NCBI RefSeq assembly: GCF_041146345.1
Contig: NW_027191406.1
Span: 744,001 to 808,000, forward strand
From: Neodothiora populina
Taxonomy: Eukaryota
Length of the DNA stretch: 64,000 bases
Direction of reading: 5' to 3'
The notes under the pieces are model-generated. The model did not search any database. It was not told the origin of the DNA and saw nothing but the letters and a program-made list of their open reading frames with translations. How positions within the stretch are numbered: position 1 is the first letter of the stretch; each line of letters starts with the position of its first letter. Positions 5,919-37,622 of the stretch are shown here, in pieces. Both the position numbers and the translations under genes were made by a program.

Positions 5919-8900
5919 ATGGCGGTGCCGGAGGACGACAGCAAGACTGGCAAGGCCTACAATGTCCTTGTACGACTTGCATTACCGCCGTATACGATCC
6001 ATTTCAAATCCTCGACCTACATGAAAGATGCGACAATGGAAATGCTGGACAGAAAAGTGTGCAAGGAGTGTCTACGGGCGACGGCGCAAAAAGCAGAAGT
6101 CAGGTCAGCATCAGCAACAGCATCGGCAACAGCCACCACACTGGCAAGGCCAGGCCTCGCGCGAAGCACGGCAGGTGCTAACTGCCAGCAGAGACGCTCT
6201 CGGTGCCGATCCTTCTTTCTGGAATGAAATGGTTATTCTGTTTCGCGCCGCTATACCCTCGCTGGAACGCCGGTCTTTCGCCGTCTGGGATCCATCAGCC
6301 GTCGACTACGAGTCCACATCTGGCAATCTGATCGCAGCACACTACCCCGGCCTATGGAAGGACCTTGAGAGACTGAATGACTTGGTTTCGATATCCAGGA
6401 ACATTTTGACGATAGGCGAAAGAGCGCAAGATCTGGCTGCAGAGTGTGCATTTGACCAGGAAGTCTTCAGGCTGGTGAATTGCTGCGTCAGAGTCACGGC
6501 CAGAGGCTTCGATGGCGACGCCGGGACTGGCGATGAGGAGAAATGGCAGTGGATCGTGAATGCTTGTGTGTCTATCGAGGAAATATCATCTATCTCAAGG
6601 CCGGACGCTAACATCAGGAACAGATAAGAAACTGCTGATCACATCACTGCAATTCCTGAACAATCTTGTCGCGCAGAATGAGCGACGCAAACTCATGCTT
6701 TGGGTCGCTCTGTTTGACAACTCTACAGAGAGCATATTGTCAGACGATCCGGACGACTCAGCGAGCCCCAGTTACGCCGGGAAGATGCCCGAGCCACCTG
6801 TCTCGACAAGTGATATCTTGGTCGCCTTGGGAGAGTCAGACCAGGCAAAGGTTGATGCTGCCGCAGATGCGCTAAGAGCGAAGCGACTACTCGCGGGTAA
6901 GGACCAGCTGAAGCCACCTTCGAGACCTGTTTCAGGCTATGTCCTGTTCGTCAAGAACTTCCAGGCAGAGGCCAGAGATGAACTTGGTCCCTCTGCCACA
7001 CCTGATCTGGTTGCAAAATCGCTTGCGACTCGGTGGGCCAACATCTCGGACGCCGACCGATCGTCGTGGAACCGTCTCTACGACACTCTGATGCAGGAAT
7101 ACGAATCGGATCTGGCAGCTTACAACGAAGCCAAGCGCGTCGCACAAGAAGAGAAGGCGCAGTTGGACAGGGCACACACAAGCCAAGTTGCAGCTCGTCT
7201 TGCGCATCTCGAGGAACAATTGAGTGATAAGTTCCGGATTGATGGTGCACGAGTGGCGCCGCTTGAGATTCCTGTGTATGCCGAGGATGGAACCGTGTCC
7301 TTCCCTGAAGAGCGACATGACACAGGACCAAGGCCTCTTGAGGAGGAGGACTACAAAATGACCTTTTCTGCAGAGGCAGGCACTAAGATCCTCGAAAGTG
7401 GCAAGTCTGAGCTGATGAAGAGACTGGAAAACTACCCGGTTCCACCTCAGCAATTACAAATTGCAAGCCCTGCATCCCCGATTGTCTCTCCTGCATCACC
7501 AGTGTACGACAACCATACAGACGAAGGCGACGAGGGTCTGAAAGAGGAGAGCGAAGAGGAGGAAGAAGAAGAAGAAGAAGAAGAAGAAGAAGAGGAAGAG
7601 AGCGAAGAAGAGGAAGACGACTATCCTGGTTCTACCGAGGATGGACGCGGTCTTCTCACTGACGTTCCTCTTATTCTTGGTCCATCAGAGATCGAAGTGC
7701 TCCCGATGATAGTAATGTCGGGCATTGTCCCTCCGGCCAATTCGCCTCACATAGCGTCTACGACAGAAGAGACAAATGCGATTGTCAACATGCACACAGT
7801 GAGATGTCACCTTCTGCTGGCTCAGGACAACGGCAAGAACCTCCTGAGGGAGCTGCTTATATTTGTAGCAGCGTGGGACTTGCGAGAAGAAGAGCTTTAT
7901 TTCAAGTTCATGGTCAAGATCATGGAAGCGATCCTCATCAATGGTTTGATGCCCTATGCTTACCACGCTTTCCGAGACAAGTCGAGATCGAAAGATATCA
8001 TCTCTCCGGCTCAGGCGGTCATCATGAAGCTGTTGACCAATATCTTCCGCTCTCGTGCCGAAGCTGCGAAAGCGAAGCCTTCACCATCTGTTGACCTTCC
8101 ATCCTACCCATTGAAGGTGGATGTTCACATTGTCAACTTCATCTTCACCGAGTTCAGACAGCACATCATCCCGCAAACTTGCGCCTTAATATTCCTTCAA
8201 GGCAAGATACACCAGAATCTAGCATCACCAGAAGATTTCCCGCTTAATCTGTGGGACATGGAGAGGATGTACGAAGGCGTGTATCAATACTTGGAGTTCT
8301 TCGCCGTGCTCACCGAAGAGAGCATCTGGAAGGACGTCATGGCGGAGTGGGAGGTTGCGAGCGAACTAGTCACTTTACTAAAAGAATTAGAAGCAGCCAT
8401 TCCCAAACTTGGACCTGGCGGCGTGACCCATTCGCCAAGTCCAAGGAGAGCCGTTCAAGCCTCACAAGGCAGCGCCTCGCCGCATCCACCGCCTCCTGTT
8501 CCCACCAATCCTAAGACTCCGCCCGTCAGTGTGGAAAGACCCTTTGATCTTTCTCCTGAGGTGGTGCCTACTCTCCCGCCTCTGCCGATACCGCCAGCTG
8601 AGTCTGCGCCTCCGAACACTACCATCTTCGAGGCAGAGACCCCGCTGGCCTATCCCGAAGACCCGCAGGATGAGCCGTCCGACTTTGAGTGGAGGAACCT
8701 TAAGAAGTTGACTGTACTTGTCTTGTCATCGCTGATCTGGAAGAACAAGAAAGTCCAAGACCAGGTACGAGAGTACGGCGGTCTCGAGGCTTTGGTTGGA
8801 TGCTGCCGACATGACGAACACAACCCCTACATCCGCGAACATGCCATCATGTGTCTCCGTTTTGCGGTGGAAGGCAATGAGGAGAATGCCAAGGTCATCA

Positions 8901-9292
8901 AGAAGATGGCAGGTCTGCACATCGAGGGTGGAAGCATGACGTTGAACCCGTCATCTGCACTCGCGGGGTATCACATCGAAGGATCAGTGCCTCAGGAAGT
9001 GCTCGACACTAACGGCTACGAGACTTTCATGGACGGCAAAGGCCAGGTGGGACTCCGGAGAAAAGACAATCCCGCCATGGCTGGCGCGAGCAACTACAGC
9101 ATTCAGCAAGGACCAGCCAAGCCCAAGACGCAGACCAAAATGACCGCGGAGAAGGCGGCTGAACTGATGCAGACTGCGCTGAGGGACTTGCCTCTGGGCG
9201 ATAAGATCCTTGGTGACAAGGACAAGAAGGAGGCGCTCGCCAAACTGGATAGGGCCTTTGAGCAGCAAGACAAGGGAAAAGGCAGGAGATAG
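5919..9292 (+). CDS. Ataxin-10/Ctr86-like ARM-repeat protein with an inserted HMG box and an acidic tract; introns ~6104-6191 and ~6566-6623
   Basis: C-terminal Atx10-type motif LKKLTVLVLSSLIWKNKKVQDQVREYGGLEALVGCCRHDEHNPYIREHAIMCLRFAVEGNEEN. Two GT..GCTAAC..CAG introns join ORFs 5886, 6028 and 6560. Confidence 0.85.
7562..7591 (+). repeat. (GAA)10 coding microsatellite, poly-Glu
   Basis: Read directly; lies within the EEEE tract of the Ataxin-10-like gene. Confidence 0.95.
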
Positions 9293-10339
9293 AATCTTCC
9301 ACGAGAGAGGTTTGCAGAAGATGGCAGACCTCGACTACCGAATAACTTGACCGGAAGACAAGCAGCTGAGCGCCTGCAAACGTCGCTGCAAGAGCCGCCG
9401 ACGCAAGATGGGGCGCCACGCCAACGGATGGAGACTGTATCATACATGAATGCGCCGCAAGGAGATGGCCATCACAACAGCAAGTCAGGAAGAGGACCAA
9501 TTTCCGAAGCGCCCGTGCACGCAACAGGTGCCCTTCATGCAGCTACAGATACAGCTGTTGGCTTGACAGGGAAACACGCGGCGCAGCTCATCGGCGCAGC
9601 GCTAGGAAACCCCAGCCTCGAAGCACCTACCATGATGGTGAACCGCAGTAAGAGCGTCAGTGGTGACTCGACTTCTGGTGTGACAGCGCAATACGCCTCG
9701 CAACGCATCAAGACCGCTTTACGTATGTCGCGTGAAGGATTGCATCCCTCGAAGCCGTCAAATGATGACTACGATCGAACAGCTCAGCTCTTGACTCTAG
9801 CACTGAACAAGTCGCCGGGCGGCAGGGCGTTGTTGAAAAGCAAGCCAATGAGTTGGATCATCGCCGCAATGATCCAAATCATGGAATGGAGCGACAACGC
9901 CAAGAAAGTCAAAGATGTGACTGCCGCCGCCGCCGCCGCCGCCGTTGCCAGCAAGGGAGTAGAGGCGGATACGACGAGCATCGATGTAAACCCTACTGGA
10001 GACAGCGCTCCTACAGGGCGCTCAAAAGGAGGCACCGAGACTAGATTCAGAAAGCCGGAGCATCAGTCCAACGAAAACAAAAACAAAAGTACGAAATCAC
10101 GAGACACGAAGACGACTGCATGGGAAGAGGAGTACAGAGGGGCGATCAGACAGAACGAACACACCATTCTTTCGCAGCAGCAGACAAATGCCATACCCAG
10201 ATCTTCTTCATCTTCTTTTTCAGCTCTATCTTCCTCGGTCGCTTTCATGCCATCGACACCTCCATCAACCATTGACCGACAAGAAAAAGCTCGACGGTAC
10301 TACTCTCGGAGAGCGACGAAATGTAATCAAAAGTCGTAA
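9293..10339 (+). other. 348-codon open frame immediately after, and in frame with, the Ataxin-10-like TAG; candidate C-terminal extension (or a separate gene from ATG 9428)
   Basis: No stop from 9293 to TAA 10337-10339 in the same frame as ORF 6560..9292. Contains repeats of a motif also present before the stop. Confidence 0.65.
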
Positions 10340-10963
10340 GATGGGTAGTAAGCGACCTATAGTCTGCCCCTGCATGTTTTATCCTGCATCACCGCTCCTG
10401 GACGTGATGCGCCAAGTACACCAGGGAGATAGGAGAAAGGGAATCACGGACTTGGTTATCCTTTTCTTTGGATAGTGTTTCATTGCTTGTATATACACCA
10501 GGGAGTTGTCATTTCCAAGACGAAAGCACCATTATGGGGTTGGGGAGGAAGGAAAAGGGAGGGATGTGAGTGTTTTGACTAGCGATGCCTTTGGGTACAG
10601 AAGTCTCTGAAGAGGAAAAAGGGGCGGAGTATTGTTGTGCTTGTCTATACCTTGTTCGGCTCGCAAGCAGGCTGTAGAGTAAGAGGAGGGGCGGCTTTGG
10701 AGTAGCATTACTCTCTGCGGTTGGCGGTAGTGTATAAGATAGGATTGATAGCATCGTCAATATCAATATCGAGTGTCTCGTCGTGTTGGTATGTCACTGC
10801 TTTGTTCTCCTTTGTGTTTGCACTGCGCACGTAGATCATGTATAGCACATGAGTGAGGGAAATAATATATCTCGTAACAGGTGGCTTTTTATTTTGTCGT
10901 TACTATCTCTGTATTTTCATCATCAATTGACAGACTTTATCTAGCCATCGAGATCGAGTGAAA

Positions 10964-10996
10964 GAAGAAGAAGAAGAAGAAGAAGAAGAAGAAGAA
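10964..10996. repeat. (GAA/TTC)11 microsatellite just 3' of the MET22 stop
   Basis: Read directly. Confidence 0.95.
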
Positions 10997-10998
10997 AT

Positions 10999-12258
10999 CT
11001 ACTCCTTCTTCGCGCCAAGCACACTCTTAACAGCATCGAGAACCTCCCCATGCAGACCCTTAGGAGCAGCGACAACGCCCTTGTTCTTCGCCAGCGTCCT
11101 GCCCTGTCCAAAGTCCAGTCTCGCACCACTGACGTCCGTGACCTCACCGCCAGCCTCTCTGACAATCAAGTCTCCAGCAGCGTGATCCCAGATTTTCTCC
11201 TGGTAGTCCTTTCGGACGGGCAGACGCAGATAGACCTCGCCCGCGCCGCGCGCGATACTGCCGTATTTGGCCTGCGAGTCCATGCGCACGCTGGGCTTGG
11301 TGATGCCGAGTTTGGCGGCGATGTCGGCCTGGTCGCCGTGCGACGAGTGGCCGGCTTCGACAGACTCGCAGAAGGTGGCGTCTTTGAGCGAGGAGATTTC
11401 GCTCATGTGGATGGGCTGCGAGGGGAGGAGGGCGGCGCGGCCGAGGGGCCGCGAGGTGGCGCCTTGGGATTGTACGGCGGAGAACAGGACGCCTTTGCCC
11501 TCGGAGTCGGTGGCGTTGGCGCCTAGGTCTTCGGTCAGAGGCACCGAGTCGTCGACGGGGAGGTTGGGGCAGCCCAGCACGCCGACTTTGACGTCGCCGT
11601 CGACCATGAGCGCGAGGCACACTGCGTATTGTCCTCCACGGAGGAAGCCCTTGGTGCCGTCGATGGGGTCGAGAGCCCAGATGCGGCCCGTGTTGCCGCC
11701 CTTGGAGGCGCCCTTGTCGAGGACGTCGAGCATTTCGCCGTCGGACTTGATGGCGCCTCCGAGCTCTTTCTCGCTGGCTTCGTCGTCGAGTTTGGCGGCT
11801 TGCACGAGGTCCCACACGGTTGCTTTGAGTGAGGCCGACTCGCGGAGGTCCTTGGCTTCCTCTTCCCCGACGATCTCGTCGTCGGGGAAGTTGTGCGCGA
11901 TGGCGGCGATTATGAGGGCTTGGGCGCCGAAGTCGCCAATCGTCACCGGTGAGGCATCGGACTTATTCAGCGTGCCCTTTGCGTGGCTGTGGAAGACGGT
12001 CTTGGTCAGGAGAGTGGCACGTTGCACGGCCAGTTCGGCCATGTGCAGCTCCTTTGCGTATGATGATGAAGAGGCCATGATGTTGTTGGTGGTGGTCGAG
12101 GAAGAAAAGGTAGCGGTCTGAGGTGTGAAGTGGCGGGCGAGGAGGCGTAGACGGGGAACCACTGTTGGGAAAAGCGAAAAGGCCAGAATGACGATTGACA
12201 CGAGGACAATTGATCGAATAGAGGTGAATCCGAAAGAAGAAGACGACGACGGTGACAT
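10999..12258 (-). CDS. MET22: 3'(2'),5'-bisphosphate nucleotidase (Hal2/Met22); second in-frame ATG at 12078
   Basis: KSDASPVTIGDFGAQA, IVGEE, WALDPIDGTKGFLRGGQYAVCLAL, GCPNLP, MDSQAKY, YQEKIWDHAAG. Confidence 0.96.
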   Translation of the reverse strand: MSPSSSSSFGFTSIRSIVLVSIVILAFSLFPTVVPRLRLLARHFTPQTATFSSSTTTNNIMASSSSYAKELHMAELAVQRATLLTKTVFHSHAKGTLNKSDASPVTIGDFGAQALIIAAIAHNFPDDEIVGEEEAKDLRESASLKATVWDLVQAAKLDDEASEKELGGAIKSDGEMLDVLDKGASKGGNTGRIWALDPIDGTKGFLRGGQYAVCLALMVDGDVKVGVLGCPNLPVDDSVPLTEDLGANATDSEGKGVLFSAVQSQGATSRPLGRAALLPSQPIHMSEISSLKDATFCESVEAGHSSHGDQADIAAKLGITKPSVRMDSQAKYGSIARGAGEVYLRLPVRKDYQEKIWDHAAGDLIVREAGGEVTDVSGARLDFGQGRTLAKNKGVVAAPKGLHGEVLDAVKSVLGAKKE

Positions 12259-37402: not shown

Positions 37403-37622
37403 TTCTGATGTTTCGTATGGTTGTGGTATGGAAAGGCGCAAATGTCTTTCCTGCAATAATAATTTGATCCGTCGGAAAAGTTGCTGCAAACAAGGCAAAT
37501 TCTTATCTTATCGCTTCGGCACCAAACGCCGCCTCGGCGGTTCTTGAAGCCGAACGAACCTGCCCGGGCATATATCTGCGAGTACAGTCGATGACACACC
37601 TACTAACCATGTCACACGCATC

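Follow-up and report, generated by a model that had tools for sequence, protein, structure and literature searches.

In a stretch of 64,000 nucleotides (nt) from the fungus Neodothiora populina (positions 744,001 to 808,000 of contig NW_027191406.1, assembly GCF_041146345.1; hereinafter the window, with positions counted from its first letter), a gene of the Ataxin-10/Ctr86 family ends at a canonical TAG stop codon, and immediately behind this stop the same reading frame is open for another 348 codons that contain three further copies of the conserved C-terminal helix motif of the parent protein. The reading that we favour, tentatively and with slightly less than even confidence, is that these 348 codons constitute a lineage-specific C-terminal extension that would be reached by some ribosomes bypassing the canonical UAG. 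From the sequence features described below, we infer that ribosomes translate the tail, reaching it from upstream through the stop, and that the tail has a function.

If this is the case, the main product of the gene would be the ordinary protein of 1,075 residues, and bypass of the UAG, most likely by near-cognate readthrough, would yield a minor long form of ~1,424 residues, with a mostly disordered tail that carries three more copies of the C-terminal helix motif; the extra copies would multiply whatever the motif binds. The tail probably originated when the 3' end of the gene was repeatedly duplicated in tandem, a like event being seen in a neutral state in a relative, and translation would afterwards have kept the tail open and motif-bearing. 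An earlier examination of the same DNA by eye and translation (the sequence-only reading) had proposed a long isoform produced by editing, ribosomal readthrough or a frame-preserving intron of 105 nt. The isoform gains in plausibility from the open frame, three significant motif copies and protein-type substitutions among them; the intron found no support.

The TAG is the normal end of the gene

Judged by its domains and homologues, the gene upstream of the TAG is a clear member of the Ataxin-10/Ctr86 family. The Atx10homo_assoc domain (PF09759) scores 84.6 bits against a Pfam cut-off of 28.9 (E 4.7e-24), and the last 271 residues before the stop have homologues in 401 proteins (E <= 0.001), the top named matches in the same search being Ataxin-10 homolog and copper transport protein 86, at 77-71% identity. 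The gene consists of 3 exons with 1,075 codons and is closed by the TAG at 9290-9292 (forward strand), which lies in the context AGA TAG AAT CTT.

By the evidence of its relatives, this TAG is the normal, old stop of the gene. The proteins of the closest relatives, P0001 (94% identity), P0002 (85%), P0003 (77%) and P0004 (72%), all terminate in ...GRR, matching the end of the window protein, and more distant orthologues terminate a few residues past LDRAF. In the 19 metagenome loci where the stop is in view, it lies ~10-60 codons past the C-terminal motif. Contigs from two DNA read sets span 8600-10600 with 0 differences, possibly representing the source sample and so not being independent of the assembly. 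An assembly error or a private nonsense allele at 9290, which the sequence-only reading had named as an alternative, is refuted by the orthologue ends and the metagenome loci: the TAG is located at the conserved C-terminus of the family, and the same DNA is present in both read sets. Given that the stop is old, an untranslated open reading frame (ORF) behind it would not be expected to have remained open for so long.

Reassignment of TAG as a sense codon was considered and rejected as well; other long ORFs of the window, including that of the convergent neighbour, end at TAG with little or no continuation. A tRNA scan of the window found none, and hence there is no suppressor candidate within the window.

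The frame behind the stop is open and looks translated

The stop-to-stop ORF of 910 codons at 6560-9292 ends at the TAG, and the same frame reopens immediately. That it stays open to 10339, as the sequence-only reading had reported, is borne out: the extension is a stop-to-stop ORF of 348 codons (9293-10339, forward strand) that ends with a TAA at 10337-10339. Within this interval, frame 0 contains 0 internal stops and the other five frames contain 16, 10, 13, 7 and 14, and a length of 348 codons or more is found in just 15 of the window's 4,190 stop-to-stop ORFs. The post-stop frame is too open for chance.

The base composition of the extension depends on codon position (chi2 26.8, p = 1.6e-4), in each of its halves as well (p = 0.019 and 6.8e-4), whereas the spacer that follows it has no codon periodicity (p = 0.79); a stretch of the upstream gene of the same size gives a stronger signal (chi2 63.7 vs 26.8). 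The codon-usage log-odds are +0.055 in frame 0 compared to -0.30 and -0.19 in the other frames, which places the extension at the low end of the range of twelve long ORFs of the window (0.06-0.31); the score peaks in the middle of the ORF, at 9599-10198 (0.13-0.21), and is weak before 9598. The seven residues A, S, T, P, G, Q and N account for 55% of the extension. A G+C (GC) content of 0.52-0.58 and a positive AT skew continue from the gene through the extension, and the first low-GC stretch appears only after ~10200-10340. Altogether, the extension looks translated.

The conserved C-terminal motif recurs behind the stop

The motif copies, which we score with the BLOSUM62 matrix using as the query the 16-residue core at 9140 (MTAEKAAELMQTALRD), are all located on the forward strand. 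Copy 1 (9140-9202, MTAEKAAELMQTALRDLPLGD) is the conserved C-terminal helix motif of the family. Behind the stop, copy 2 (9347-9409, LTGRQAAERLQTSLQEPPTQD) scores 39, copy 3 (9563-9610, LTGKHAAQLIGAALGN) 27 and copy 4 (9680-9727, VTAQYASQRIKTALRM) 32. Neither the best score nor the sum of the top three was attained in any of 2000 shuffles of the extension that preserved its composition. When all six frames of the window were scanned (127,906 positions), these sites came out as the three best non-self matches, the next elsewhere scoring 24. Chance similarity of the copies is thus excluded by the shuffles and the scan. Of the recurrences listed by the sequence-only reading, those at 9347, 9563 and 9680 stand, and the weaker one near 9764-9767 (score 15) falls below the background of the window. 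Of the 120 listed orthologues, 64 contain the strict pattern of the motif once, at a median of 54 residues before the C-terminus, and the other 56 lack it; two copies occur in none.

The copies are real and alike as protein only. Searches for repeats at the DNA level recovered only GCC and AACAAA microsatellites and one chance pair of 14-mers. The differences among the four copies are distributed over codon positions 1, 2 and 3 as 48/20/62 (96 comparisons each), and identical residues are encoded by different codons in 27 of 37 cases; the earlier count of 9 residues in common between copies 1 and 2, out of 21, is confirmed. In a neutral simulation, random mutations were introduced into copy 1 until it differed by as many nucleotides as the real copies do (20,000 trials per copy); the observed similarity was kept in 14/20,000 trials for copy 2, 17/20,000 for copy 4 and 685/20,000 for copy 3. 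As it was by protein similarity that the copies were detected, these codon-position and simulation figures are biased in favour of constraint. With this proviso, the suggestion of the sequence-only reading that selection acted on the protein is supported, the differences falling mostly on the third positions of codons. This frame would have to be translated under either scenario, descent under constraint or convergence.

Copy 2 bears on the question whether the extension is a gene in its own right. It is located, as had been pointed out, upstream of the first post-stop in-frame ATG (9428-9430, forward strand, context CGG ATG G), so that no product initiated at an ATG of the extension can include it. 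An independent young gene, which we regard as a serious rival although rather unlikely, would be a tandem duplicate of the 3' end behind the stop that is now transcribed or translated alone, starting at ATG 9428, at the second in-frame ATG at 9632, which has a better context (ACC ATG), or at a near-cognate codon, for example, TTG 9347; that it shares the frame of the upstream gene would be a remnant of the duplication. The openness and coding-like character of the ORF are compatible with such a gene, as are the in-frame ATGs at 9428 and 9632, the maximum of the codon-usage score in the middle of the ORF, the occurrence of tandem 3'-end duplicates of this gene in two metagenome loci (L001 and L003, see below), and the one-in-three chance of in-frame placement alone. 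It is more difficult to reconcile with copy 2, which is the best preserved of the copies and precedes the first ATG, yet shows protein-type substitutions. Moreover, the interval from the stop to ATG 9428 is just 135 nt long and shows no drop in GC, unlike a terminator plus promoter; this ATG has a C at -3; and the parallel Cys-rich ORF of L001 is devoid of any ATG.

A single-sequence structure model of the last 60 residues and the extension, with the TAG read as W, places a helix on each motif copy at a confidence too low for use (mean predicted local distance difference test score, pLDDT, 46; predicted template modelling score, pTM, 0.18).

A larger duplicated unit is not claimed. In a BLAST comparison with the 120 orthologues, there was a hint of resemblance between 9413-9490 and VPxEVLDTNGYETFMDGKG, a conserved segment that precedes copy 1, and the spacing from this segment to the next motif is 50 vs 51 residues (9413-9610); the ungapped score of 17 is inside the window background (best 25).

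Related loci and the origin of the tail

The closest named homologues belong to Dothideomycetes sp. NU459 (77%) and to Aureobasidium species (~71%), and other relatives reach 94%, 85% and 72%; by these affinities, the host is a Dothideomycete near Aureobasidium and not a Sordariomycete. Among the metagenome loci, all 5 Aureobasidium-like ones (L001, L002, L003, L005 and L020; L001, L002 and L005 are identical over the stretch shown) have TAG as the stop of the gene, and the other 14 with a visible stop have TGA (12), TAA (1) or TAG (1, L014), followed by 50 open codons at most.

Two of the Aureobasidium-like forms have a long in-frame ORF of a different kind behind the TAG. In L020 (372-827), the TAG is followed by 150 in-frame codons with two Cys-rich repeats, and in L001 (5565-5888), by 21 codons, a second TAG and 84 codons with one Cys-rich repeat. 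The repeat pattern is C.QCL...RC.CR.C..C....HKCRC.GG, for which Pfam gave no match at E <= 0.01. The L020 and L001 forms align in frame 0 only (score 162 vs <=59 in the other frame pairs; 0/500 shuffles). The ratio of nonsynonymous to synonymous divergence (dN/dS) between them is ~0.29, with dS 1.7 vs 0.42 in the adjacent gene; given so large an excess of dS, it may be paralogous repeats that were aligned here, and the dN/dS estimate is rough. The parallel is suggestive, not proof, of a bypass of the TAG older than the tail in the window itself.

Shorter duplicates of the 3' end are found in the same group. L003 (5568-5726) contains, in the 3' untranslated region (UTR), an in-frame tandem copy of the last codons of the gene that retains its own TAG; its differences by codon position are 11/9/7, and with 3220/20000 simulations keeping the observed similarity, this duplicate looks neutral. 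The 21-codon copy in L001, also with its own TAG, shows some bias to conservative change (161/20000). The L003 and window duplications share the presence of C-terminal coding copies in frame behind the stop, and differ in that the L003 copy has its own TAG and is alike as DNA, without a protein-type pattern, whereas the window copies have no stops and are alike as protein only.

L003 illustrates what the extension would be if it were an untranslated relic, that is, a set of decayed tandem duplicates in the 3' UTR, open by chance or by youth. Apart from this precedent, an extension homologue was not found and the confidence of the structure model is low, as would be the case for a relic; we nevertheless consider this explanation improbable. 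With 7-16 stops per other frame, 348 open codons would arise by chance with a probability of ~e^-12. The copies are old, with third positions near saturation and no detectable DNA repeat, yet no stop has arisen, and codon periodicity is present in both halves of the ORF.

The distance from the stop to the convergent neighbour is ~0.5 kb in L004, 0.19 kb in L015 and 0.04 kb in L017 vs 1.7 kb in the window, so roughly a kilobase has been gained behind the stop in this lineage.

Possible routes past the stop

If the stop is bypassed, translational readthrough would be the most likely route, although, taken on its own, it is still doubtful. Editing of the mRNA is a considerably less probable route, and splicing would be the least likely of the three.

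Adenosine-to-inosine (A-to-I) editing that converts UAG to UGG, a sub-case of stop bypass, would have to operate here in a Dothideomycete, and we give it little credence. According to PMC11087585 and PMC10041177, A-to-I editing is common in Sordariomycetes, occurs in one Pezizomycete, likely with an independent origin, and is not found in Leotiomycetes; the claim of the sequence-only reading that UAG-to-UGG stop-loss editing is established in Sordariomycetes agrees with PMC13123824 and PMC11087585. The host thus belongs outside the lineages with sexual-stage mRNA editing (Sordariomycetes; Pyronema), which is why we rate editing lower, and the Ame1-Tad3 interaction on which the editing depends arose in Sordariomycetes (PMC11087585 and PMC10041177). 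No report of mRNA editing in Dothideomycetes was found in the portions of the literature on fungal editing that were accessible. What keeps editing under consideration is, in the first place, the stop itself: UAG is the preferred fungal editing triplet (PMC13123824), and TAG is the stop here and in all 5 Aureobasidium-like loci, as opposed to TGA or TAA in 13 of the 14 others with a visible stop. Besides, the two in-frame TAGs of L001 have similar contexts and precede a conserved ORF, and editing could pass both; the duplicate TAGs in L001 and L003 were inherited with the duplication, however, and hence are not independent. The A of the TAG is in a small hairpin loop of the minimum-energy folds in the window and in several relatives, but these hairpins are no more stable than those of shuffled sequences.

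A broader possibility, to which we attach a low probability, is that an efficient, UAG-specific bypass acts on Ataxin-10/Ctr86 across Dothideales-like fungi, with each lineage carrying its own module behind the same TAG. The modules would be motif repeats in the window and Cys-rich sequences in Aureobasidium-like fungi, one of the latter behind two TAGs and without an ATG. In its most striking version, such a bypass would be stop-loss A-to-I editing outside Sordariomycetes and Pezizomycetes.

Removal of the stop with a frame-preserving intron, either that at 9213-9317 (forward strand) or some other GT..AG interval, is very improbable. The interval of 105 nt put forward by the sequence-only reading exists and keeps the frame, but it is not supported as an intron, with a weak donor (GTGACA) and no CTRAY branch site. 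Although there are 118 in-frame GT..AG candidates, a CTRAY branch site at 4-50 nt from the acceptor is found in none of them, whereas both real introns of the gene carry GCTAAC; L001 and L020 likewise lack a candidate with a CTRAY branch site. The only GT dinucleotides in 9000-9292 are those of GTGGGA (9047) and GTGACA (9213), with one more at 8987 (GTGCCT), and the donors of the real introns are unlike all three. Elsewhere in the window, at 37545 (forward strand), 34356 (reverse strand) and 20951 (reverse strand), there are three more sites where an ORF of at least 200 codons is followed past one stop by a same-frame ORF of 184-484 codons; these pairs are probably exons split by short introns, and to that extent they are in keeping with an intron at the TAG.

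Several observations weigh against bypass of the UAG. Known contexts that promote readthrough include UGA-CUA and UAG-CAR-YYA, and the actual context, AGA UAG AAU CUU CCA, matches neither. The local RNA folds at the stop are not better than those of shuffles (z = 0.08 for 61 nt and -1.9 for 121 nt). Simple readthrough would rarely pass the two successive TAGs of L001, and L003, although Aureobasidium-like, has just the neutral-looking duplicate and short post-stop ORFs, without the Cys-rich ORF. The chance of one in three that the ORF falls in frame with the upstream gene counts here as well, as does the ascertainment bias of the motif figures. The codon-usage scores are weak in the first 300 nt (-0.04) and in the last 300 nt (-0.09) of the extension. 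Homologues of the extension were not found by a word-index search at near lengths or among proteins of 692-2204 residues, by HMMER against 1.84 billion representatives, or in the metagenome contigs searched with it; further, Pfam gave no match, the ESM Atlas no usable match (recognition value 1186), and none of the 120 listed orthologues matches it. It may be absent even from the relatives at 94%, 85% and 72% identity, whose contigs are of ~5.2 kb. Finally, 348 residues far exceed the fungal stop-loss extensions of 24, 11 and 27 residues described in PMC13123824.

Comparison with known cases of stop codon bypass

In fungi, such as Ustilago and Aspergillus, programmed readthrough equips glycolytic enzymes with a cryptic peroxisomal signal; these extensions of ~10-20 residues lie behind UGA-CUA and close with a tripeptide, the type 1 peroxisomal targeting signal (PTS1), and fungal stop-bypass extensions of this sort act as targeting signals. 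The shared feature would be two protein forms per gene by means of an in-frame extension behind a leaky stop, the leakiness being a proposal in the present case. Unlike the peroxisomal readthrough genes, the window has UAG-AAU and a tail of 348 residues, the C-terminus of which, ...NQKS, is not a PTS1.

Sexual-stage stop-loss editing is exemplified by FgDBF2, FgMOB1 and FgCDC14 in Fusarium graminearum, and fungal tails of this type, of 11-27 residues, act as degradation signals (PMC13123824). With these Sordariomycete cases, the window shares a canonical UAG followed by an in-frame, poorly conserved and disorder-biased extension (PMC13123824), as well as a TAG in place of the different stops of relatives from other lineages. 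The differences are that the host is a Dothideomycete, that the tail has 348 rather than 11-27 residues and that the hairpin is not significant; moreover, in contrast to the featureless tails of Sordariomycete stop-loss editing, here a conserved motif of the parent protein is repeated. Such repetition sets the gene apart from its own family, too, more than one C-terminal motif being found in none of the 120 listed Ataxin-10/Ctr86 (PF09759) orthologues.

If bypass takes place, the tail would add one third to the length of the protein and multiply its conserved motif, so that the gene would have two forms, with a difference in valency built in. Being located in a fungal class for which no mRNA editing was found reported in the accessible literature, the locus would also provide a sharp test. 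Should the tail turn out to be an independent gene instead, it would still be a clear case of new coding sequence derived from the duplicated 3' end of a neighbour.

Gene structure and neighbouring features

The gene model was derived by tblastn with the full-length orthologues P0003 and P0009, with splice sites read by eye; P0003 residues 1-1106 are covered across the three exons, all on the forward strand. Exon 1 (5919-6103), defined by tblastn of both orthologues, starts with the ATG at 5919. Intron 1 (6104-6191; GTCAGC...GCTAAC...CAG) corresponds to a gap between tblastn segments, with its ends placed such that the frame and the orthologue sequence are kept. Exon 2 (6192-6565) has 92% identity to P0003 residues 63-187 in tblastn. 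Intron 2 (6566-6623; GTGTGT...GCTAAC...CAG) is recognized by the fact that its removal restores ...WIVNAYKKLL... as in P0003. Exon 3 (6624-9289) encodes an HMG box (PF00505, Pfam E 1.6e-07) and the Atx10homo_assoc domain.

Downstream of the extension, the lower-GC spacer (10340-10998, GC 0.446) is the likely location of the 3' ends of the two transcription units. It is followed by the convergent neighbour (10999-12078, reverse strand), which a match to PF00459 (E 4.5e-48) assigns to the inositol monophosphatase family and which we take to be HAL2/bisphosphate-nucleotidase-like; a pure (GAA)n microsatellite at 10962-10997 adjoins the stop codon of this gene.

Within the Ataxin-10/Ctr86-like gene itself, the HMG box (6900-7110) is present in just 17 of the 120 listed orthologues according to a precomputed Pfam column, mostly in Aureobasidium and close relatives. 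The gene also includes a poly-Glu tract that is encoded by a long GAA/GAG run at 7553-7615.

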